Shown here: positions 12,809 to 62,515 of the stretch, one piece after another | Layout: every line of letters begins with the position of its first letter | Position numbering within the stretch: position 1 is the first letter of the stretch | Virus record (IMG/VR): IMGVR_UViG_3300048904_000123 | Span: 960 to 64,959 of that record | Origin: a virus | Direction: 5' to 3' (one strand) | Length of the DNA: 64,000 bases | Notes under the pieces: generated by a model | What the model saw: the letters and a program-made list of their open reading frames with translations, nothing else | Databases searched by the model: none | Told to the model about the DNA's origin: nothing | Position numbers and translations under genes: made by a program

Positions 12809-13428
12809 TGCCAAGGTCTGCTGCATGGTCGCCGGGATTCAGGCGTCAACCGCCCGGCGTCAAGAAGATCGGTAGCCACATGGTTGCCCTGCTGGACGCC
12901 AACCGAGCGACGGTGCGAATCGTCAGTAATCCGTCGGGCGAAGTACAGAAGGACATCGAGGATGATACACCGCCCGAGCCGGGCGACGAGGTCGTGCTGT
13001 CCTTCGAGAACCGATACAAGAAGTACGGCATCAACCTGAGCGCATACACTGAAGAGGAGTTGGATCTCCTCGAGCAGATCATCAAGGAAGCGTTCGACCA
13101 CGCAAGGCCCATCGTCCAAGCGAGAGACCGAGTAGCTGAGGAGGCTGCAAACCATGGGCTCGATATCTTTTACCGACGCCACCGAGGTGCTCCGAAGCTT
13201 TCTATTTTCAAAAGGGCGAGCGGATCACACGGTCAAGGCGTACCTGACGGATCTGAAAATGTTCTGGCAGGAGATGGATCTGGAGACCATCGACCTGCCG
13301 GAGCTGGAGATCCTGGGGGCGACGTGGCTGAACACGCGGCGCAGGGTGATGTCCCCCAAGACAACGGGGCGACGGCTCACCACCATCAAGAACCTCGGGC
13401 TCGCATACAAGGTCGCGATCCTCACTGA
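12808..13428 (+). CDS. Hypothetical protein whose 3' 275 nt overlap the recombinase gene
   Basis: TAATG coupling; protein-like N-terminal ~115 aa. Confidence 0.6.
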   Translation: MPRSAAWSPGFRRQPPGVKKIGSHMVALLDANRATVRIVSNPSGEVQKDIEDDTPPEPGDEVVLSFENRYKKYGINLSAYTEEELDLLEQIIKEAFDHARPIVQARDRVAEEAANHGLDIFYRRHRGAPKLSIFKRASGSHGQGVPDGSENVLAGDGSGDHRPAGAGDPGGDVAEHAAQGDVPQDNGATAHHHQEPRARIQGRDPH

Positions 13429-13984
13429 GTATACGCCGCCGACACCAGCTACCCCCAAGCCGCACCCCCTCCCCGGTGGTACGGCTGACCTGAAGTCGTT
13501 GATCGATGGGTGCTATCTCGACGAGCACAAGGCGCTGGTCACATTGACCGGGCTGTGCGGCGCTCGTGTGTCGGAGGCTCGCGACGTGACGCCGGACGAC
13601 TTCAACCTCGAGAAGCGAACCGTCGAGATCTGGGGCAAGGGCGACAAGGTCCGCATCATCCCACTCAGTGACATGGCCTGGGAAATTCTTCTTCCGATCA
13701 TCGTCGATCGTATGACGACTGATCGCTGTACGCAGCCGCTCATCAGCATGGGCGATCGCACCGCTCGCGAACTCATCACGACACTGGGACGTCGTGCTGG
13801 AATCTCGCGCCCCATCAGCTCGCACGACCTGCGAGCTACCTTTGCTACGGCGGCGTACAACGTAAGTAAAGACATCCGTGCCGTGCAACTCCTGCTCGGC
13901 CACGCAAGCAGCAAGCAGACCGAACTGTACATCGGTGTCGCCGACGACCAGATGCGCACGGCTGCTAACTTCATGGGAGTTTAA
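13154..13984 (+). CDS. XerC/D-like tyrosine recombinase
   Basis: GARVSE (R), WGKGDK (K), SHDLRATF (HxxR), LLGHAS...TELY (H, Y); SD GAGGAGG; no arm-binding domain. Confidence 0.9.
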   Translation: MGSISFTDATEVLRSFLFSKGRADHTVKAYLTDLKMFWQEMDLETIDLPELEILGATWLNTRRRVMSPKTTGRRLTTIKNLGLAYKVAILTEYTPPTPATPKPHPLPGGTADLKSLIDGCYLDEHKALVTLTGLCGARVSEARDVTPDDFNLEKRTVEIWGKGDKVRIIPLSDMAWEILLPIIVDRMTTDRCTQPLISMGDRTARELITTLGRRAGISRPISSHDLRATFATAAYNVSKDIRAVQLLLGHASSKQTELYIGVADDQMRTAANFMGV

Positions 13985-15311: not shown

Positions 15312-15556
15312 AGACAATCATTTGCCAGATCAGCGGCTCGCTACCGATGCAGTCATGTGGCAAACGTGCGGACCAGATCTACAAGTGCGAAGAGATTGGT
15401 CCGCACGAAAACCACAAGGTCGGGGATCACACGATCGTGCACGAGAGGTATGGCAACGGATACTCTTGCGCACGAATCGAAGAGGCAATCCAGAAGCTCG
15501 GGCGCGGAGAAGCACTTGTGTCTGCGCCAATCAAGTACACGGTCATTGGGCGATGA
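15308..15556 (+). CDS. Small Cys-rich protein
   Basis: GTGA overlap; several C/H residues. Confidence 0.6.
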   Translation: MKTIICQISGSLPMQSCGKRADQIYKCEEIGPHENHKVGDHTIVHERYGNGYSCARIEEAIQKLGRGEALVSAPIKYTVIGR

Positions 15557-15858
15557 CCGCAGCGGGCAAGGACGAGCCGGTGCCCGATCCCGAGAAGGTT
15601 GGGCTACCTGCAACACCATTCTTCTATATGCTGGATCAGGTAGCTACAATGCTGGGCCAGACCGTAGAAGACATGATGCACACCCGCCTGTTCTACGCAG
15701 GCCGGTCACGGGGTAGGCAATTCCCTAGGCAGCTACGCGCTGTCAACATCGCACCCAACGATGACGATAAGCCGGACTGGAGGATCAGCGAGGGCGAACT
15801 CATTCGCTGGTGCAAGGCGTGCGGCTTCCGAGTGTATTCCCGTGGCCGAGTGGTGTAA
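15553..15858 (+). CDS. MerR/excisionase-like HTH protein (putative)
   Basis: FYMLDQVATML...LRAVNI...WRISEGELIRW pattern. Confidence 0.5.
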   Translation: MTAAGKDEPVPDPEKVGLPATPFFYMLDQVATMLGQTVEDMMHTRLFYAGRSRGRQFPRQLRAVNIAPNDDDKPDWRISEGELIRWCKACGFRVYSRGRVV

Positions 15859-17598: not shown

Positions 17599-18093
17599 AT
17601 GGAAATCTTTGGCTTTGATCCTGCCCAGATGCAGCACCAGCAGGATCTTCATCACATGAACATGGAGTCGAACCGACACGAGGTTCTCAGCTTCATCGAG
17701 AACCTGACCAAGGAGCAGCTCGACACCCTCGGCATGTTGCTTGTCAGCATTGCTGGCGACGAGGGTCAACTGATCGCGGCCCACTACCACGGCATCCTGA
17801 AGCAGGTACTGCACTTCAAGCACGGTCGCTGCATGTGCGGCCTCGACCACGGCGAGCCGGAGGGCGTGACGCTGGGCGAAACGGTCGAGCCCGAAGAGCC
17901 TGTGTTCGACGCGGCCGCAAAAGTCAAGGCCGACATCGACGCGTTCGAGTTGTACCGCGTTCGTGGCGTGTTCGACAACTTCCCGCAGGTCGTGTGCGTA
18001 GACTGCGGTACGACCTACATCAACCTGCGCGACCGGATGCTCCGCGAGCCGGACGACTGCTACGGCTGCAACCTCAAAGCAAAGAACGGATGA
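17599..18093 (+). CDS. Zn-binding hypothetical protein
   Basis: SD GAGGAG; CMCGLDH, CVDCG and CYGC motifs. Confidence 0.7.
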   Translation: MEIFGFDPAQMQHQQDLHHMNMESNRHEVLSFIENLTKEQLDTLGMLLVSIAGDEGQLIAAHYHGILKQVLHFKHGRCMCGLDHGEPEGVTLGETVEPEEPVFDAAAKVKADIDAFELYRVRGVFDNFPQVVCVDCGTTYINLRDRMLREPDDCYGCNLKAKNG

Positions 18094-18320
18094 CCATGCC
18101 GAACAAAGTGAACTTCGTCAACCTGGGCGAGACGCCGTACGAGGACTGGCCGAACCTGCTGACACCCGGCGAGGTGGCCGCCCTGTTCCGGGTCGATCCC
18201 AAGACCGTGACGCGCTGGGCGGCGGCCGGCAAGATCAGCAGCATCCGCACGCTGGGTGAGCACCGTCGGTTCAGCAAGGAGTCCGTCCGCGAAGCTTGGC
18301 TCGGGGACACGAACCAGTGA
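18090..18320 (+). CDS. bldC: BldC-family (MerR-like) developmental regulator homolog
   Basis: LLTPGEVAALFRVDPKTVTRWAAAGKISSIRTLGEHRRF closely matches actinomycete BldC as recalled (LLTPAEVATMFRVDPKTVTRWAKAGKLTSIRTLGGHRRY). Confidence 0.85.
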   Translation: MTMPNKVNFVNLGETPYEDWPNLLTPGEVAALFRVDPKTVTRWAAAGKISSIRTLGEHRRFSKESVREAWLGDTNQ

Positions 18321-18628
18321 GCGCGGACGAGGACGAGATCTTCTATGGCGGCGGGACGGCCGCACCAATCATCGGCCAGGATGGCGTGTCTAAGCAGTAC
18401 GTAGCTAAGAACATCATCCTCTCCGACGAGTTCGAGTTGGCCGTTGCCAAGCCGGGCGAGCTGGACGAGAACCAGGATCGACCTGCGTTTATCCTGACAG
18501 TCAAGGGCGTGGACAACACTACCCGTGCGATGGCTGCGGTCACGCTGGTCTTCGATCCCCGCATGGCCGAGGCGATCATCAAGCTGACCCGACAGAAGTA
18601 CACTGAGATCCCCATCGAACACCGATAG
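18317..18628 (+). CDS. Hypothetical protein
   Basis: GTGA overlap, good codon bias. Confidence 0.65.
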   Translation: MSADEDEIFYGGGTAAPIIGQDGVSKQYVAKNIILSDEFELAVAKPGELDENQDRPAFILTVKGVDNTTRAMAAVTLVFDPRMAEAIIKLTRQKYTEIPIEHR

Positions 18629-18640
18629 AAGGAGGCAGGC

Positions 18641-20125
18641 GTGACGGCGACAACCGAGCGCAAGTCGCTCGAACCCTTCCTCAAGGATGACGTACAGTAC
18701 TACCCGCACCAGGTGCCTGCGATCCGAGACATGGCCCGCATGAACTCGTTCTTGCTGGCGGACGACATGGGTCTCGGCAAGTCACTGCAAGCTCTGACGG
18801 TGTTCTGTATCGACGTGAAGCGCGGGATCGCCGAGACGATGCTGGTGGTTTGCCCAGTAACGCTGCGCGAGAACTGGGTCGATGAGATCGAAAAGTTCAC
18901 TCGCATTCCCTACACGCTTCTTGGCGAGGTCGCCAACCCGAACAAGCGTGGCGAGATGAAGAAGTTGACACCCGCTAAGCGCCAGGCTCAGCTGGTAGAG
19001 TTTACCCAGCAAACTGGACCCCGCATTCTGATCTGCAACTACGAGCAGCTGGTCAACCCTGTCCACTCGGCCACGCTACGGAAGTTCCAGTTCAGCGCCG
19101 CGCTGTACGACGAGGCCCACTACATCAAGAACCACAAGGCCAAGCGTACCGATGCGGCGCTGGCGATTCGGTCGAAGCGCAGCTTCATGCTGACGGGTAC
19201 GCCAATGCTCAACCAGGTCAATGAGTTGTGGACACTACTGCATCGCATTGACCCGCGCGCGTTCCCTAAGTACTGGACGTTCGTCAACCGGTACTGTGTG
19301 TTCGGTGGATTCGAGAATCGTCAAATCATCGGCGTCAAGAACGAGGCCGAACTGAAAAAGATCCTCGGCAAGATCATGATCCGCCGAATGAAGAACGATG
19401 TGCTGGCTCGGGACAAGCCTACGTACATCCAGCACAAGGTCGGCCTGTCCGATACGCAGCGCAAGCTGTATGACCAAATCGAGAACGAACTCTACTTGAC
19501 AGACGGCAACGGAGTAGAGTACGATGTCGAGAATGACCTGACCAAGTTCCTCAGGTTGAAGCAGGTGTGCAACACGCCGTACTCGATCGACCCGTCCCTG
19601 CCGGACGACAGTCTGAAGTTGGACCGGGTCATCGAGGTGTGCGAGGAGATCGCGTCAGCTAACGACAAGTTCGTTTTGTTTACTCAGTTCCGCGGCACCA
19701 TGGCTGCGACGGCTAACCGAATCTATAAGGCCAAGCTCGGACCGCTGCATTTGCTGAATGGTGACGTGCCTACGGGTGAACGTGTCCCAATCGTAAAGCA
19801 GTGGGGCAGCGAACGCGGTGCGTCGATCCTGCTATGCATGACGCAGGTTGCCGGGGTCGGGCTCAACATGGTGAAGGCCAACCAGGGTGGCTTCATCGAT
19901 AAGCTGTTTGTGCCCGGCCTAAACAAGCAGGCAGTGGACCGGATGGATCGCATCGGCCAGGACAAGCCCGTGCTCATCCACGAGTTCATCACCAAGGGTA
20001 CGGTCGAGTCCCGCATCGAGGCGATCCTCAGAAGCAAGGAAATGCTCAACGCAGATATCGTCGAGGGCAGCGTCGGTATGCGCAAGCTTATCGAACTCCT
20101 CAAACAGAACATGCAGGAGGACTGA
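18641..20125 (+). CDS. SNF2-family helicase
   Basis: ADDMGLGKS, LYDEAH, LTGTPM.N, QAVDRMDRIGQ. Confidence 0.9.
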   Translation: MTATTERKSLEPFLKDDVQYYPHQVPAIRDMARMNSFLLADDMGLGKSLQALTVFCIDVKRGIAETMLVVCPVTLRENWVDEIEKFTRIPYTLLGEVANPNKRGEMKKLTPAKRQAQLVEFTQQTGPRILICNYEQLVNPVHSATLRKFQFSAALYDEAHYIKNHKAKRTDAALAIRSKRSFMLTGTPMLNQVNELWTLLHRIDPRAFPKYWTFVNRYCVFGGFENRQIIGVKNEAELKKILGKIMIRRMKNDVLARDKPTYIQHKVGLSDTQRKLYDQIENELYLTDGNGVEYDVENDLTKFLRLKQVCNTPYSIDPSLPDDSLKLDRVIEVCEEIASANDKFVLFTQFRGTMAATANRIYKAKLGPLHLLNGDVPTGERVPIVKQWGSERGASILLCMTQVAGVGLNMVKANQGGFIDKLFVPGLNKQAVDRMDRIGQDKPVLIHEFITKGTVESRIEAILRSKEMLNADIVEGSVGMRKLIELLKQNMQED

Positions 20126-20262
20126 TGATCTGCAAGAAGTGTGGCGAGGGAAAGCACGGGCCGTGCAAGAAGCGGAACGCCAACAAGCAGGGAGCCGACT
20201 GTGATTGCCAGCATCGGGTCCGCAAGATTGTCAGGAAGGAGAAGGTGGGTTATGCTGAATGA
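20125..20262 (+). CDS. 45-aa Cys/His zinc-binding micro-protein
   Basis: MICKKCGEGKHGPC...CDCQH; TGATG coupling. Confidence 0.65.
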   Translation: MICKKCGEGKHGPCKKRNANKQGADCDCQHRVRKIVRKEKVGYAE

Positions 20263-20512
20263 GGCGGGAGTCGCGGCCATACCGGTCGTGACTTCCGGTA
20301 CGCCACCTCCACCGCCCAGCCCTACCAGTGAGCTTACGGTAGAGCAACAGTACCGACCCGTCGAGGTTGCGTCCCTGATGAAGCGCGACGTCAAGACCAT
20401 TCGCATGTGGCTGAGAGATCCGAAGCACCCACTGACTGGCACGCAAGTCGGGGGCCAGTGGTACATCTCGAAGTCGCATCTCGCTAAGTTTCTGAACGGA
20501 GAGTTTGGATGA
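20252..20512 (+). CDS. HTH_17/excisionase-like DNA-binding protein
   Basis: YRPVEVASLMKRDVKTIRMWLR...GGQWYISKSHL. Confidence 0.75.
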   Translation: MLNEAGVAAIPVVTSGTPPPPPSPTSELTVEQQYRPVEVASLMKRDVKTIRMWLRDPKHPLTGTQVGGQWYISKSHLAKFLNGEFG

Positions 20513-24054: not shown

Positions 24055-24387
24055 ATGCGAATCATGAAGCCGGTCATCTGGCTCCCGCGTGTTGCGGGAA
24101 ACAACTCCGACGAGGGAGTGCGGGACTTTCGTCCGGCCAATAACCTCGACGAGGCGACCATCGTTCCTGCTCCGGTGGAGCCGGTGGTCCTGTCGCAGGA
24201 TGCGGTGGTGGAGGAGGGGGACCCAAAAGCCTCATCTGCTCCGGAATCTGTCGTCAACTCGCAGCCCGTAGTGGTGACGCCGACTTCCCCGTCGGTCGTC
24301 CCGGAGGTGCCTGCAACTGTGGCGAAGGTCAAACTGACCCATCCTTCTACGAACCCTGGGAGCGAGACGCTGCCTGTAGTGGAGTAG
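24055..24387 (+). CDS. Hypothetical P/V/S-rich protein; candidate frameshift partner of WhiB
   Basis: SD AGGA; contains an in-frame C-CCA-AAA at 24222-24228. Confidence 0.55.
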   Translation: MRIMKPVIWLPRVAGNNSDEGVRDFRPANNLDEATIVPAPVEPVVLSQDAVVEEGDPKASSAPESVVNSQPVVVTPTSPSVVPEVPATVAKVKLTHPSTNPGSETLPVVE

Positions 24388-28399: not shown

Positions 28400-30370
28400 C
28401 TACGTGATCAAGGGCCACTGGTATGCGTACTTGGAAGACGGTCCGACCTCAGTGATCGTCATGGTCGTTGCATCGTTTCCTGTACCAGCGTACCTATTCC
28501 AGGTGGTAGTGTTTGCGCCAGTAGCAAGACCGCAGAGGACGGAAGTCGTCACAATGTCAGCAGTCGTATCATTAACGATGTAGGTATAGAAGTTAAGCAA
28601 GTTTACTGACGCTCCTCCAATGATTGGAGTACGCTGCGCCGTGAAAATAAGCGCACCAGCAGCCGTTGTTCCCTTTCTAAGACGCCACAGTACGGCCTGT
28701 GTAGTTGAGCTTGAGATCCCCCCCTTGATCTCAAACCTGTAAGCCGTCTTTTTCTTAAAGCGGAACGAGTCGAAATACATTGTTTCCGTCTCGTCACCAC
28801 CGACAAGACCGTTATGCGGAGAAGTATAAGCTACTGCAGTGTATGTCGTCTTGTCATCCAGCCAGCGGGCAGCCTCAGGGCTGCAGATAAAGATGTCCGA
28901 CCGCTCACCCTGTGCCGTGAAAGTCCTGGCAGCAATCGGCACTGCCCACTCGGGCAGACCAAAGGCGTGCGTCGATGCCGGATATGTCTTGCTGTCCACG
29001 ATAAAGAACTGGGTGTTGGCGCTCATCCACGTGGTTGCGCCGCCCGTCCCGATGCCAGGCACGAGTCCGTAGTACAACGTCTCGCCCGGCTTGAGCGGAA
29101 TGCCTCCACTCGTGCCGCGAATCTGCGTCGAGAAGTCTGCAGTGTTTGCCGGGAAGACAGCAACGTTGCTCGGCATAGGCACGTTCAGCGTACCTGCAGG
29201 CAAAGCGTTGTAGTGCGCGCCAATGCCAGTAAAGACTAGGTTGCCTTCCCAGCTAAAGTTGGTTCCATCCCAGGCAAGCTGACCACTCGTTCGCCATGTC
29301 CACGAGATGTCGTTTGCCGCTCGCAGTGGGCTACTCCGCCACGAGCCCGACGACCATTCACCGTTCTGGTAGTACGTTCCCCAAGGGAATGCTGAGTACT
29401 CGTCTCGCTCCGTCCAGCCGAGTCCAGCGTTGTTGAACCCCACCCAACCTTGCATGGGCTCGATGGTATCCTGCTTGATAGCGACCATGCGACCAGTCGA
29501 CGGGTCACCGACGTTGAAGGCAGAGCCGTACGTCGTGACCGACATCAGGTACGTTGTGCTAGCTGCCGTCGACTGAATGGGTACGATGCGGAACCAGAAC
29601 TCGATTGGCGCACGGATGCCAGTCTTGACCAGTGCCACATCGATAGCCAGCTCGGCGTCCGGGTTACGGGACAGATTCGTCTGCGGAAGCAACCGCATCC
29701 AGAATGCCTTGTTCCCCTCGTCGCCCTCGAGGTCAACAACCATGGCGTCCGAGATACTGAAACTGTACTTGCGACAGTTCTTGTTCCACGTCACCACGAG
29801 GTCGATGATGCCGTCGATCTGCGAACCGCCGCTTGCTCCTGCCCACGGACCAACCAGCATACCGGAGCCGACGGGCAAGCTGGGTGCCGCAAGCTTGACG
29901 TTGATGCGTCGCTCGTAGATGTCACTGACGGGCGGACCAGTCTGCGGACCCTCGGCTGTGGCATTGAACGCCAGGTTACTCAGACCAGCGACCTGCTGGT
30001 TGAGCGTGTACTCGCCACCGCTCAGGATGCGAGTGATGTACGGCTGGCCGCGGAAGTTCTCCACGTATACGAGACCACCAGGTCCAATAGTGCTGGTCTC
30101 GACCAGCGTAACTGTGCGATAGTCGCCCAAGTCCTTCGGGATCGAGCCAGGAAAGATGCCCACCTCGATCGGACCGTCATCGCCGGTGAACCATACGCTC
30201 GCACGAAGGCGAGCGATGTCCACGTTCATGACTCGTCCGACGTTAGGGTTCGTGCCCTTCGCGTCTACTGTGTTGGATGCGACCTGTCGGAACACATCCC
30301 TCACACGCATGGCAACACGGGGGTCTGCGAAGTCCAGACCCGCCGTGCTGCTGCTGTCAACATCTGCCAT
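28400..30370 (-). CDS. Minor tail / receptor-binding protein
   Basis: Last tail gene; beta-rich, W/G/T-rich C-terminal half. Confidence 0.7.
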   Translation of the reverse strand: MADVDSSSTAGLDFADPRVAMRVRDVFRQVASNTVDAKGTNPNVGRVMNVDIARLRASVWFTGDDGPIEVGIFPGSIPKDLGDYRTVTLVETSTIGPGGLVYVENFRGQPYITRILSGGEYTLNQQVAGLSNLAFNATAEGPQTGPPVSDIYERRINVKLAAPSLPVGSGMLVGPWAGASGGSQIDGIIDLVVTWNKNCRKYSFSISDAMVVDLEGDEGNKAFWMRLLPQTNLSRNPDAELAIDVALVKTGIRAPIEFWFRIVPIQSTAASTTYLMSVTTYGSAFNVGDPSTGRMVAIKQDTIEPMQGWVGFNNAGLGWTERDEYSAFPWGTYYQNGEWSSGSWRSSPLRAANDISWTWRTSGQLAWDGTNFSWEGNLVFTGIGAHYNALPAGTLNVPMPSNVAVFPANTADFSTQIRGTSGGIPLKPGETLYYGLVPGIGTGGATTWMSANTQFFIVDSKTYPASTHAFGLPEWAVPIAARTFTAQGERSDIFICSPEAARWLDDKTTYTAVAYTSPHNGLVGGDETETMYFDSFRFKKKTAYRFEIKGGISSSTTQAVLWRLRKGTTAAGALIFTAQRTPIIGGASVNLLNFYTYIVNDTTADIVTTSVLCGLATGANTTTWNRYAGTGNDATTMTITEVGPSSKYAYQWPLIT

Positions 30371-33300
30371 TACGAGAACTCCGTTGCACTCTTTGTGCCC
30401 ACCACTGTGACGCGGCGAGCTGTCCCAGACATTGGCCCAAGGTCCATCGGGATCGTGAAGCTACTGAGCAGGAACCGGTTCGGTGTATACAGGTCGTCGG
30501 TCGGCTGCCTGATCTCCACGATCTGACTTGCATCCAGGAAGGGTAGAACCAGCGATTCGAAGTTAACCGAATACTCTTCGAGTGAACTGATACGTAGCTG
30601 CGTGTCCGCGTAGTCCTGCGCCTGATCTACGGTGGTAAACAGGTCAGACTCGTACGTCTGGACGCGGTCACCCATTCGACTGATCCGCGTGGGCGAGCCT
30701 TCCAGGGTGTTCAACGCTTCGGCGAATACAATCTGACTTACCGAGTTGCCAGTCACGGCACCACCCAGTTCGTCAGGTTCTCCACCAATCGTTGAACCAG
30801 TTACAATGATGTGGTTGAAGATAAGCGAGTCATTGCTCGACTTGCTGTAGCTAACCAGCGAGCCGCCGCCATCCGTGCTGAACGACCACGCGAGCGGATC
30901 GGTAGAAGGGTCAGGGTAGGGCTGCATTGTGAGGCGTCCGTCTCCCCGGAAGAACACTTCGTATCCGATCGAGTCAGCGATCTGCTGCATCACTTCCCAT
31001 CGCTCGGTACCACGGGTGAAGACCAGATCCTTTGTGTACGCTTGTCCCGTTGCTGGCATAGCGAACTTGGTCACACCTGCGTTAGCCGCCAGTGCGATAA
31101 TGATGTCTTCAACCTTGGTGCCGATCGGGAAGCTCAGCGTGTTCGACAGTTTTGAGACGATGCACTTCTTTGCATAGTCTCGACCGGTAACCTTGACCTC
31201 GTTCGGGAAGCGATCCGAGTCGATGCGGTCGATCATGAACTCGCCGAGCTGAGTCTCCCAGCGCTTCCACATGCCTGCCGTCTCGTCATAGTACCTGATA
31301 CCCCACATGCACTTCAGTATCTTGTCGAACCAGAAGCCATCGTTAGGCTCATCGTTCAGGCGTCGGTCCGTGTTGTCGAGCGTGAACTCGCAGATCCGCT
31401 TCTCGTCACGCTCTCGGTCGACAGTCACCGAGCCGGTGATCAGTCTGGCGTCCCAGTTGGGAATGTCAAACTTTGTCAAGCCGTCCGCTTCGTAGATCTC
31501 CACTCGCCGGTAGATACGAACCAGACCGCCTGTCAATTCCTTTACGACGCGGTCGATCGGATAGCCGAGCGATGGGAGCACGGGCTCGAGCTGGTCAACC
31601 CTTGGCGGTATATTGAACGCGGCGATGGCTAGGCTGTCGGCTGGCGCCTCCGAGCTAAGCACTGCCCACTGGAAGGTGGATGTCTTTGTCGTAGTAGAGA
31701 ACGACTGCCAGCGAATGTCTGATGTAACCTGGACCTGGCCAGTCACAGACCAGCGTAGATCCGAGTTGATCGAGACACTACTGTTCACACCCCAGCGGAG
31801 ATCAGAGTTCACGGACACGGAGCCCGCACTCGTCCACCGCAGATCACTGTTAACCGTCACCTGGTTGTAGCTCAACCAGCGCAGATCAGAGTTAACGGTT
31901 ACAGTAGATTGCACTGCCCAGCGTAGATCGCTGTTCTTTGAAACTGCACTTGCTACCGTCCAGCGAAGATCACTGTTGACGGATACCGATCCAGCGCTCG
32001 TCCACCGAAGATCGCTGTTGACAGCAACCTGCGAGTAACTTATCCATCGAAGATCGCTGTTGACAGCAACCTGCTGCGACACCGACCAGCGTAGATCTGA
32101 ACTCTTCGAGACCGCGTTGTATGACAACCAACGTAGATCAGAGTTAACAGATATCGTGCTGGCTACAGTCCACCTGAGATCCGAGCTGACCGACACCGAA
32201 CCTGCACTGCTCCACCGCAGGTCAGAGTTAACTGATACCTGCTGCGATACAGACCAGCGTAGATCGCACGACTTAGATACGGAACTGTACACCGCCCAGC
32301 GAAGATCGCTGTTCGCGCTAACCTGCTGCGACACCGACCAGCGCAGGTCGCTGCTAACAGGAACCTGCTGCAACACAGCCCAGCGAAGATCACTGCTAGT
32401 GGAGACTGTACTGTTGACACCCCACCGCAGGTCACTGCTCTTTGCGACAGTAGTTACCGCAGTGTTGTAGTTGTCAACAGCCGAGATGTTGTTCGTACCA
32501 GCGTCGCGGTGCGTCTCAAAGTTCGTGACGATGTTCGGGCTGGAGTTCAGCCACGTGGGTTTCGCCAGCGTACGCTGAGTCGTCCAGGTCGCACCGTCCG
32601 GGCTGCTCTGAAACAGAACGTTGGTTCCACTGATAATAATCTGGAACCATGCGTGCGTTACAGAGTTATACGTGATCGACGTGGCCGATGCGTCGAAGTA
32701 CGCAGTCTGGTTTGAACAGTAAAACACACCGTTCAAGATATCGATATAGATTCCGAGCTGCGTACCAGCCGGCTTCGACTGGTCGTACACCATCATTTGC
32801 AGGTAGCACTCGGTGCTGGCTCCGTTAGATGCGCCCGGGATCAGGCGAGCGTACACGCTGTCGAACTTCGTGTACGTCTTGCTTGTCAGGCCGGTGTACG
32901 TGGTGCTGGTGGTGAACTGCATCTGCTGCGAAGCCTCAGACGCAAGACCATAGCTTGACCACTTGGTCGTGTCGAGACTGTTGTCATTGAAGTCATCCGA
33001 CACGGAGCTGGACAGCTTGGTTGCAACTTCGCGCAGCACGGTGGCGGACATGACGCCAGAGCTGCTACCGGTACAGGTGAAACCAACTGTTAGTGCGTTG
33101 GTAGTAGCACCAGCACTTACGACAGCACCAAAGGTGTACGTCGTCGTCTGGTTGCCCGAGCTGTTACCGAGGCGGCTCCATGCAGTGACCGTGCCGAACG
33201 TCTCACTCGTGGCCGAGAGAGTCGGCGAAGTAATCGCCGTAGTGAAGTCTGTGTTCAGTGCAATGCCGACGTGCATCATGTCGCCGACAGCAAGTGCCTG

Positions 33301-33735
33301 CGTCCAGGTACCAGTCACGGCAGTGTAGTTCGTGCCGTTTGTGGTATCTGAAGCACTAGCGCTGAACGGAAGAGCCCAGCTGCCCACGGTGCCAGAGAAC
33401 ACGTCCATGACGCCGCTCAGTGCAGCGCCGGTGCCACCGGTACTTGTGATGGTTACTGAACCGGTCTCGGTCCCATCGAGGATTCGATAGAACTTGGCAA
33501 CTGCAGTTGGTCCAGTATCCGCTGCATTCGTTCCGGTACCACCGTTTGCTGCTGAACCAGATACGGCCGCCCACCCAGCAGGTGCAGTGAATGTGGCAGT
33601 ACTTGGCTTAGCGCTTACTGTGATGATAGCGAGACGACCAGCTACGACGCCCACGTAAGGGACGTTGTAGCTGGTCGTACCACCTGCCACAGTCGCAGTC
33701 GTGACACCGGTCGATGCGGCAAGTGTAATAGTCAC
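30370..33735 (-). CDS. Minor tail protein: beta-rich N-terminal domains, 14-aa repeat stalk, C-terminal hub-like domain
   Basis: Position in tail module; SDLRW repeats; C-terminal Tal/hub-like features (RWEVMQQIADSIG, F.GDG). Confidence 0.75.
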   Translation of the reverse strand: MTITLAASTGVTTATVAGGTTSYNVPYVGVVAGRLAIITVSAKPSTATFTAPAGWAAVSGSAANGGTGTNAADTGPTAVAKFYRILDGTETGSVTITSTGGTGAALSGVMDVFSGTVGSWALPFSASASDTTNGTNYTAVTGTWTQALAVGDMMHVGIALNTDFTTAITSPTLSATSETFGTVTAWSRLGNSSGNQTTTYTFGAVVSAGATTNALTVGFTCTGSSSGVMSATVLREVATKLSSSVSDDFNDNSLDTTKWSSYGLASEASQQMQFTTSTTYTGLTSKTYTKFDSVYARLIPGASNGASTECYLQMMVYDQSKPAGTQLGIYIDILNGVFYCSNQTAYFDASATSITYNSVTHAWFQIIISGTNVLFQSSPDGATWTTQRTLAKPTWLNSSPNIVTNFETHRDAGTNNISAVDNYNTAVTTVAKSSDLRWGVNSTVSTSSDLRWAVLQQVPVSSDLRWSVSQQVSANSDLRWAVYSSVSKSCDLRWSVSQQVSVNSDLRWSSAGSVSVSSDLRWTVASTISVNSDLRWLSYNAVSKSSDLRWSVSQQVAVNSDLRWISYSQVAVNSDLRWTSAGSVSVNSDLRWTVASAVSKNSDLRWAVQSTVTVNSDLRWLSYNQVTVNSDLRWTSAGSVSVNSDLRWGVNSSVSINSDLRWSVTGQVQVTSDIRWQSFSTTTKTSTFQWAVLSSEAPADSLAIAAFNIPPRVDQLEPVLPSLGYPIDRVVKELTGGLVRIYRRVEIYEADGLTKFDIPNWDARLITGSVTVDRERDEKRICEFTLDNTDRRLNDEPNDGFWFDKILKCMWGIRYYDETAGMWKRWETQLGEFMIDRIDSDRFPNEVKVTGRDYAKKCIVSKLSNTLSFPIGTKVEDIIIALAANAGVTKFAMPATGQAYTKDLVFTRGTERWEVMQQIADSIGYEVFFRGDGRLTMQPYPDPSTDPLAWSFSTDGGGSLVSYSKSSNDSLIFNHIIVTGSTIGGEPDELGGAVTGNSVSQIVFAEALNTLEGSPTRISRMGDRVQTYESDLFTTVDQAQDYADTQLRISSLEEYSVNFESLVLPFLDASQIVEIRQPTDDLYTPNRFLLSSFTIPMDLGPMSGTARRVTVVGTKSATEFS
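31665..32451 (-). repeat. Coding tandem repeat with 42-nt / 14-aa period
   Basis: 17 DLRW copies, one DIRW and one degenerate TFQW, counted from the translation. Confidence 0.95.
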
Positions 33736-61965: not shown

Positions 61966-62390
61966 TACATAACTCCAATCGCTTCAGCGAACTTCACGTA
62001 CACAGTGAACATCAGACTCGACAGGATCAGGACTGCGCCGATCACCACCACCATCGCCAGCTTGACCTGGGTATCGGTGAAGGTGTGCGTCTTCCCGTAG
62101 TAGTTGTGAGCCTTCTTGTACCGCTTCCGCTCGGCCTTGATTACCTTCGCAGGCCGAGTGTCTTCCTGCTTGTAGGCGGGAATCACCTGAGTCTCACGTT
62201 CACTGGGTTCACCGGAGTACGGAGATGCGAACAGCGGAACCCCGTTGAGGATCTGAAGGGTGTCTGCGCTGGACGCAAACCACCGCCCCGGTCCACAATC
62301 CTGGGTATCCAAGACGTAGGCATCTCGCAGCGAGGGCGAATCCCAGGCGTGGACCTGGGTTGGTGCCTCAACTCCGGGCTTGCTTGTCAT
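61965..62390 (-). CDS. Protein with C-terminal TM anchor
   Basis: SD GGAGG; LAMVVVIGAVLILSSLMFTV. Confidence 0.7.
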   Translation of the reverse strand: MTSKPGVEAPTQVHAWDSPSLRDAYVLDTQDCGPGRWFASSADTLQILNGVPLFASPYSGEPSERETQVIPAYKQEDTRPAKVIKAERKRYKKAHNYYGKTHTFTDTQVKLAMVVVIGAVLILSSLMFTVYVKFAEAIGVM

Positions 62391-62412: not shown

Positions 62413-62515
62413 TTCTTTGTTTGTAATAGATATACTTATTGTTTTATTATTAAGTTATTATTCTTTTATTATTTAATTGTATTTAGTTATTATTCTTTTA
62501 TTATCTTCTTCTAGT
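62413..62515. repeat. Extremely AT-rich element with three phased direct repeats
   Basis: TTATT(C/G)TTTTATTAT at 62436, 62458 and 62490; two copies extend to an identical 20-mer AGTTATTATTCTTTTATTAT. Confidence 0.9.

Follow-up and report, generated by a model that had tools for sequence, protein, structure and literature searches.

BldC, which is familiar chiefly because it delays sporulation in Streptomyces, founded a class of DNA-binding regulators of unusual structure whose members oligomerise head-to-tail on direct repeats. Relatives that stand outside Streptomyces development have, to our knowledge, hardly been studied. Here, we describe a gene for a BldC-family winged helix-turn-helix (wHTH) protein of 76 amino acids (aa), hereafter P0001, which lies on the plus strand at positions 18090–18320 of a 64,000-nucleotide stretch of viral DNA (the window) that covers bases 960–64959 of the IMG/VR virus record IMGVR_UViG_3300048904_000123. 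Positions given without further label are those of the window. We consider it roughly an even chance (probability about 0.5) that P0001 is a functional protein of its phage lineage that would serve the phage by regulating its own DNA, as a small architectural or transcriptional factor. At the tip of its DNA-binding wing the protein carries a glutamate that occurred in none of the other BldC-type domains compared.

The closest described system is BldC itself, for which we follow the residue numbering of Schumacher et al. 2018 (PMC5859096). BldC is monomeric off DNA, contacts bases through K26 and R30, reads DNA with the wing residues H46, R47, and R48, and touches phosphates through T27, T29, and K33 (PMC5859096). 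Head-to-tail contacts between subunits are made by F21, V23, and W31 against L11, I40, T42, L43, and G44, together with an R22–E16 pair, and the engineered substitution G44E disrupts the head-tail dimer and abolishes DNA binding completely, while H46E likewise abrogates DNA binding (PMC5859096). At the natural whiI site, which contains TGTCCGAATT, the G of TG is recognised by R30 and the GG by K26, with an A/T tract left to the wing; the optimised site TGTCCGAATTGTCCGAATTG consists of two such units (PMC5859096).

Among phage proteins, the Xis-type proteins of mycobacteriophages form cooperative filaments on direct repeats, and gp36 of phage D29, which has been compared with BldC in the same study, regulates phage gene expression (PMC12266134). 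WhiB, Lsr2, and MerR domains in actinophages have been surveyed (PMC8612146); WhiB and Lsr2 resemble the case presented here as host-type actinobacterial transcription factors kept by actinophages and differ from it in fold and family. In the literature searched on BldC, Xis-like phage proteins, and actinophage regulators, no account of a BldC-family protein encoded by a phage came to light, in line with a preliminary description of the locus, made from the sequence alone, whose author knew of no characterised phage BldC.

A BldC-family protein encoded by a phage

By the curated threshold of the NCBIfam model HTH_BldC (NF033787; cut-off 77 bits), P0001 is a true member of the BldC family, with a score of 89.9 bits (E 6.7e-26), and as it is encoded on a virus genome in IMG/VR, the preliminary description was right to call it a phage-encoded BldC homolog. 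The Pfam domain HTH_17 is matched at 45 bits, and phmmer searches of the Protein Data Bank (PDB) linked the protein to the BldC entries 6AMK (E 1.5e-18) and 6AMA (E 3.9e-18). Against the solved BldC, 35 of 54 positions (65%) are identical and FRVDPKTVTRWA is unbroken, which agrees with the two-thirds identity and the intact stretch given in the preliminary description; Foldseek comparisons with the BldC structures gave 65–68% identity across 50–54 columns. In an AlphaFold2 (AF2) model of P0001 (mean predicted local distance difference test 84), a helix-turn-helix (HTH) is followed by a two-strand wing and a C-terminal helix, and the best PDB matches of this model are again 6AMA and 6AMK (template modelling score 0.86–0.93, root-mean-square deviation 0.8–1.8 Å), after which come the Xis of mycobacteriophage Pukovnik, SoxR, and RacA. 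A homodimer prediction with two copies of P0001, from which DNA was left out, returned no answer.

Judged from its 76-aa length and the AF2 model, P0001 is a MerR-like wHTH only, without coiled coil or effector domain. It differs from classical MerR regulators in that it ends ~15 residues past the wing and keeps Leu43, a position at which those regulators have a charged or polar residue (PMC5859096). With the BldC proteins of Streptomyces coelicolor and S. venezuelae (6AMA, 6AMK; PMC5859096, PMC6428758) it shares the single-domain fold, the recognition helix, the wing contacts, and the interface. The HTH with the recognition helix occupies residues 22–46 of P0001 (18153–18227, plus strand) and includes FRVDPKTVTRWA and the equivalents of K26 and R30; both base contacts are identical to those of BldC, as are the wing contacts H46, R47, and R48, the phosphate contacts T27 and T29, and every residue of the head-tail interface (L11, E16, F21, R22, V23, W31, I40, T42, L43, and G44). 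This conservation is consistent with a protein that would bind direct repeats as head-to-tail oligomers. P0001 differs from BldC in that its gene is part of a phage replication operon, in a 20-residue N-terminal extension with a motif common only to phage orthologues, in the replacement of K33 by Ala and of Gly45 by Glu, and in its family score of 89.9 bits, where chromosomal orthologues reach 104–109 bits. The comparison gives no basis for a developmental role of P0001.

A search of 301 sampled Actinomycetes genomes, which include two unpublished ones (G027 and G034) on which no claim rests, recovered a BldC-family match above the cut-off in 251, genomes of only 1.3–1.5 Mb among them. Because the family is near-universal in Actinomycetes, small genomes included, its presence is uninformative on hyphae or sporulation. 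The scores fall into distinct ranges: chromosomal copies reach the 104–109 bits given above, additional paralogues 83–91 bits, and virus-borne copies, P0001 included, 80–91 bits. The preliminary description had proposed an alignment and phylogeny as a check, and both were run. In a poorly resolved tree of 151 domains over 54 columns, P0001 joins two syntenic relatives (Shimodaira–Hasegawa-like approximate likelihood ratio test support 82) within a group of 12 sequences that are all from viral contigs (support 87), both values being below the tree tool's 95% star threshold; the protein scores above the BldC cut-off and groups with viral sequences rather than with host orthologues. Given its score of 89.9 against 104–109 bits, the viral grouping, and the position in a phage replication operon, P0001 is not an orthologue of the developmental regulator.

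Homologues from cultured phages are more distant. Microbacterium phage PaoPu gp24 (62 bits), Arthrobacter phage QuinnAvery gp44 (55.8 bits), and Brevibacterium phage AGM1 gp34 (44 bits) are small wHTH proteins with a core 44–57% identical to that of P0001, and two of the three stand at a Cro-like position, consistent with phage gene control; unlike P0001, all three score below the BldC cut-off. No closer record from a cultured phage was found in the GenBank phage collection, where the best match is an unverified faecal contig of bacterial appearance (103.8 bits).

On the cellular side of the family, one Nocardiopsis genome holds 17 copies above the cut-off, and cellular BldC-family genes fall into two signature classes, the canonical K33/L43/Y49 and A33/P43/F49, both of which score above 105 bits (L090–L208; G001). 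Some cellular proteins contain two to four BldC-type domains per chain (P0121–P0124 and P0002, at loci L007–L009), one of them with four domains in 279 aa; the two-domain P0002 is encoded next to pheST. Such chains would be covalently linked head-to-tail arrays.

The glutamate at the wing tip

The wing of BldC reads TLGGHRR and that of P0001 TLGEHRR (T42, L43, G44, E45, H46, R47, and R48), so that G44 is kept and Gly45 is replaced by Glu, which is Glu57 of P0001 and is encoded by the GAG codon at 18258–18260 (plus strand). This difference, pointed out in the preliminary description, holds both in the sequence itself and in an identical second assembly, a 67,407-bp contig (depth 12) in the Logan assembly of a root-metagenome run that matches the window without difference over 17600–18700. 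The run is probably the source sample and not an independent one, and it was the only run found with the sequence, there as contigs, a form that does not resolve minor alleles. The Glu codon is the assembled consensus.

Two partly overlapping sets of domains place the residue in its family context. Of 217 domain instances at the viral, genomic, and metagenomic loci retrieved, 212 have Gly at position 45, three have Asn, one has Arg, and only P0001 has Glu; among 254 instances in the best protein matches, Gly was found in 247, the rest have Arg, Asn, Gln, or His, and the one Glu is again that of P0001. Together this makes ~470 domains, ~460 of them with Gly. P0001 lacks the Gly-Gly tip (G44-G45), a near-invariant trait, yet not one that defines the family. 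The replacement is a single G-to-A change that is private to one genome.

The natural Glu45 falls between G44 and H46, and because an engineered Glu abolishes binding at either of these flanking positions (PMC5859096), the change is non-trivial. From its position and from the BldC mutational data, we consider it most likely that Glu45 makes docking in the minor groove and the stacking of subunits weaker or tunes them differently, and probably not that it belongs to a conserved design. That phages would carry an altered wing as a conserved 'poison' is argued against by the wings of the orthologues, which vary: they read GGHRL, GGHRR with three-residue loop insertions, GNHKR, and, in P0001 alone, GEHRR. 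At position 45 itself, the five sister orthologues have G or N and never Glu. A natural Glu exactly between two positions where an engineered one is disabling makes the protein a means to probe how the wing and the stacking surface tune the head-to-tail binding mode.

Phage setting and a candidate target

The gene is translationally coupled and lies inside a phage replication module. Its ATG overlaps the stop of an upstream 164-codon open reading frame (ORF) at 17599–18093 (ATGA), and its TGA overlaps the GTG of a downstream 103-codon ORF at 18317–18628 (GTGA), all on the plus strand. The upstream product belongs to phrog_7649, which has no assigned function, and flanks the BldC-like gene in all sister phages; the downstream product (103 aa) has no family match and is conserved as a neighbour solely in the sister phages. 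Thirteen bases past the 103-codon ORF starts the gene of an SNF2-type DNA helicase (phrog_62; 18641–20125, plus strand). Counts of promoter- and terminator-like sites around the BldC-like gene equalled those in shuffled sequence, with no excess. P0001 would thus be made together with phage replication and recombination genes.

Among the matches listed, at least five metagenomic sister phages (L002, L005, L420, L422, and L423) have an orthologue at the corresponding place, where it is flanked by homologues of the 164-aa and 103-aa genes and followed by the helicase, and the carriers form a lineage of roughly 73–75-kb actinophages. The six phage orthologues have in common an N-terminal Y-(E/D/A)-(E/D)-W-P motif absent from cellular BldC, and RVDPKTVTRWA is invariant in these six and in two cellular proteins. 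In a 74,337-bp relative (L421), the gene is missing at this spot, where the neighbours of 191 and 104 aa stand with no BldC-like gene between them (L421:2097-2501), and the helicase of this phage is 72% identical to that of the window, closer than those of the carriers L420, L422, and L423 (66–68%). Because the slot is kept in five sisters and the gene is missing in L421, the BldC-like gene reads as a conserved but dispensable accessory of the lineage, with the Glu private to one genome. L421 also offers the partner for a natural presence/absence pair in the study of function. Among cultured phages, the slot is taken by unrelated genes in Woesvirus Hello, and no record of a Rhodococcus phage in the phage collection matched P0001.

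Viral BldC-family genes elsewhere stand after RecE/RecT (L078), before a DNA polymerase and the same SNF2 helicase family (L069 and L073), or before the large terminase (L028 and L048), and sub-threshold relatives in cultured temperate actinophages occupy a Cro-like position, divergent from the repressor. These contexts favour a role on phage DNA. A conserved protein partner was considered and rejected, as the coupled downstream genes of the different viral lineages are unrelated. Bona fide BldC-family members are fixed in place in one lineage of actinophages and recur in viral replication, recombination, and packaging contexts, which bears on the question of whether phages direct the family at their own genes or at the host.

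A candidate target was found ~370 bases past the right end of the window, in the largest gene-free stretch of the genome (G000:C1:65325-66820, equal to L337:366-1861), which is 1.5 kb long with 48% GC, separates two divergent arms, and probably contains an origin and/or an early control region. An unbiased k-mer test against first-order Markov resamples returned CGGAC as the top 5-mer of this stretch (24 observed versus 3.5 expected, z 9.4–9.6) and TGTCCG as the top 6-mer (13 versus 0.9, z ~10). Eighteen units have an A/T tetramer within 0–3 nt, some form direct repeats with spacings of 9, 11, 12, or 13 bp, and there are recurrent repeat families, TTTYCCCGGACG among them. Since K26, R30, and the whole recognition helix are kept and the repeats are similar to the BldC box, the TGTCCG units with their A/T tracts are the most plausible candidate target of P0001 on sequence grounds. 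Three gene-carrying sister phages likewise show an excess of TGTCCG in the corresponding region (z 5.3, 5.8, and 3.3), the weakest excess is that of the gene-less relative (L421/L424), and the Rhodococcus phage Perlina, in which no P0001 homologue was found, has no comparable cluster. Over the five genomes compared, the co-occurrence of gene and repeat follows the expected direction and is suggestive, not decisive. The repeats that crowd the stretch are built on CCGGAC/TGTCCG with an A/T tract; besides these it contains CATGAC repeats spaced at 10 bp and a pair of 25-nt repeats, CGTCATGTCCGTCATTTCATGACTT and its 92%-identical copy CGACATGTCCGTTATTTCATGACTT.

An A/T island at 62436–62504 (no strand) may be a second, weak candidate site for a wing that reads the minor groove. 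Five TTATTAT copies at 11-bp phasing make up this array, out of six in the whole genome; A+T rises to 92%, and the island directly precedes a minus-strand gene with its start at 62390 and no relatives in viral contigs. When IMG/VR was scanned for phased TTATTAT arrays, only A/T-rich giant-virus contigs and unrelated contigs were returned.

Alternative roles and further features of the genome

Under the reading that we favour, P0001 would be a single-domain regulator that assembles head-to-tail on direct repeats of the phage genome, with the TGTCCG and A/T-tract repeats of the 1.5-kb control region as its best candidate targets; as its recognition helix is unchanged, sites of host BldC type could be bound too. 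Several observations weigh against it. Glu45 might cripple the protein, since G44E and H46E each abolish binding by BldC, and the K33 phosphate contact is lost to Ala, a residue common at this position in phage copies and in one class of cellular paralogue. In many of the repeat units, GTCCG and the A/T tract are separated by 2–3 bases more than in the 9-bp unit of BldC, and AATT pairs 8–11 bp apart were found nowhere in the genome. At least three other HTH proteins are encoded near the BldC-like gene. The gene-less relative L421/L424 retains a TGTCCG excess (6 versus 1.8, z 2.7) and shares the broader ATGTC/GACATA repeats, so another HTH protein of the phage, or a BldC of the host, could read the repeats instead. 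AATT itself is scarce (34 observed versus 130 expected under a mononucleotide shuffle), and avoidance of the site was rejected as the cause because all A/T tetramers are equally rare and the Markov observed/expected ratio of AATT is 0.82, a generic coding effect.

The preliminary description had proposed that the phage either mimics BldC to keep hyphae vegetative or poisons host BldC filaments with an altered wing. In a general form, P0001 would bind host operators or cap host BldC filaments and so reprogramme transcription or development, which we regard as unlikely. In its favour, P0001 matches BldC in the recognition helix and at every interface residue; Glu45 adjoins G44, where Glu destroys the head-tail assembly of BldC (PMC5859096); the phage genome lacks the canonical paired AATT sites; and the capture of WhiB and Lsr2 by actinophages is documented (PMC8612146). 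However, the host need not be filamentous, as the family occurs in 251 of 301 Actinomycetes genomes regardless of sporulation; P0001 scores and groups with virus-borne and paralogous copies (80–91 bits) rather than with the host orthologues (104–109 bits); and its close relative L421 does without the gene. On these grounds, and with the Glu private and absent from the five sister orthologues, neither the mimicry of BldC in hyphae nor the poisoning of host filaments is supported: the homology was correctly recognised, and the developmental hijack is unsupported. A narrower form of the idea is improbable in our view: the intact head of P0001 might dock on DNA-bound host BldC-family protomers at TGTCCG/A-T operators while Glu45 blocks the next subunit, a termination of the chain by which the phage would dismantle a host regulon (a developmental one where the host is filamentous) or keep filaments short on its own control region.

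It is also rather unlikely, less so than such termination and more so than a general action on the host, that the Glu has disabled DNA binding and that the intact ORF is an accessory drifting to loss. Glu is disfavoured at a Gly-Gly hairpin tip. Its uniqueness among the ~470 partly overlapping domains, the loss of binding in BldC when Glu is engineered at the adjacent positions, and the dispensability of the gene in L421 all fit such a decaying allele, while the ORF shows no disruption, is coupled translationally to its neighbours, and is conserved at every other functional residue, and the wings of the orthologues vary too (N45, K47, L48, and loop insertions) without signs of decay. Just as improbable as the termination of host filaments is a role as recombination directionality factor (excisionase) of the small XerC-like tyrosine recombinase encoded at 13154–13984, on the same plus strand and 4.1 kb upstream. 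P0001 passes the excisionase-type domain model TIGR01764 (40.6 versus a cut-off of 28.8 bits), a generic model that 45 of 47 BldC-family proteins tested match as well; Pukovnik Xis (4J2N) is the next-best structural match after BldC; and the L5/D29 gp36-type proteins, small phage wHTH proteins of the same fold, are both Xis-like and regulatory (PMC12266134). Yet P0001 is only 27–28% identical to Pukovnik Xis, and its gene is next neither to an integrase nor to the recombinase. The recombinase is common to the phages ReqiDocB7, Perlina, and Jumbo, whereas no Rhodococcus-phage record matched P0001, and P0001 aligns neither with the annotated excisionase of Perlina nor with the gene that directly precedes the Perlina helicase. 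The gene at 15322–15858 (plus strand) is the homologue of this Perlina excisionase and the better candidate for a directionality factor. Viral BldC-family genes are, moreover, rarely near detectable tyrosine integrases: one was found within 1.5 kb in only 1 of 94 rows (locus by domain, over viral and syntenic loci), a count for which detection sensitivity is limited.

The wider genome (73,216 bp, estimated 100% complete, ~59% GC) is that of an uncultured actinobacterial phage: among the phage genes on the record are those for a terminase, an endolysin, and a replication protein of primase/helicase type. The plus-strand early arm of the window encodes a MoxR/CobT-like pair, the XerC-like recombinase, the SNF2 helicase, a DnaQ/Orn-like exonuclease, a beta clamp, RusA, and a methylase, and the large minus-strand ORFs between 28400 and 56773 look like a putative structural arm. 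The nearest cultured phages, at ~52% identity of the large terminase subunit (TerL), infect Rhodococcus (ReqiDocB7, Perlina, and Trogglehumper) and Gordonia (Jumbo and Woesvirus), followed by Streptomyces phages. There are no tRNA genes in the window, and the closest cellular BldC-family proteins are scattered over Nocardioides, Cellulomonas, Actinoplanes, and others, the full-length Cellulomonas matches being ordinary chromosomal copies. Neither tRNAs nor TerL kin nor cellular BldC relatives point to a single host.

Several further features were recorded. An ORF at 24055–24387, earlier labelled WhiB-like, gave no match in a Pfam scan. A second, generic HTH_17 protein is encoded at 20141–20512 (plus strand), upstream of the DnaQ/Orn-like exonuclease, and an HTH gene is annotated at the same position in Hello (gp55) and Jumbo (gp56), including phages without the BldC-like gene, a correspondence by annotation and position. 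The ends of the record (G000:C1:1-127 and 73090-73216) overlap by 127 bp and are listed as a 'direct terminal repeat'; because 127 bp has the length of an assembler k-mer overlap, they are probably the overlap of a circular contig and not true terminal repeats. Finally, two arrays of a 42-bp tandem repeat, at 32001–32097 (2.3 copies) and 32289–32398 (2.6 copies), lie within a minus-strand ORF of 1121 codons (30370–33735).

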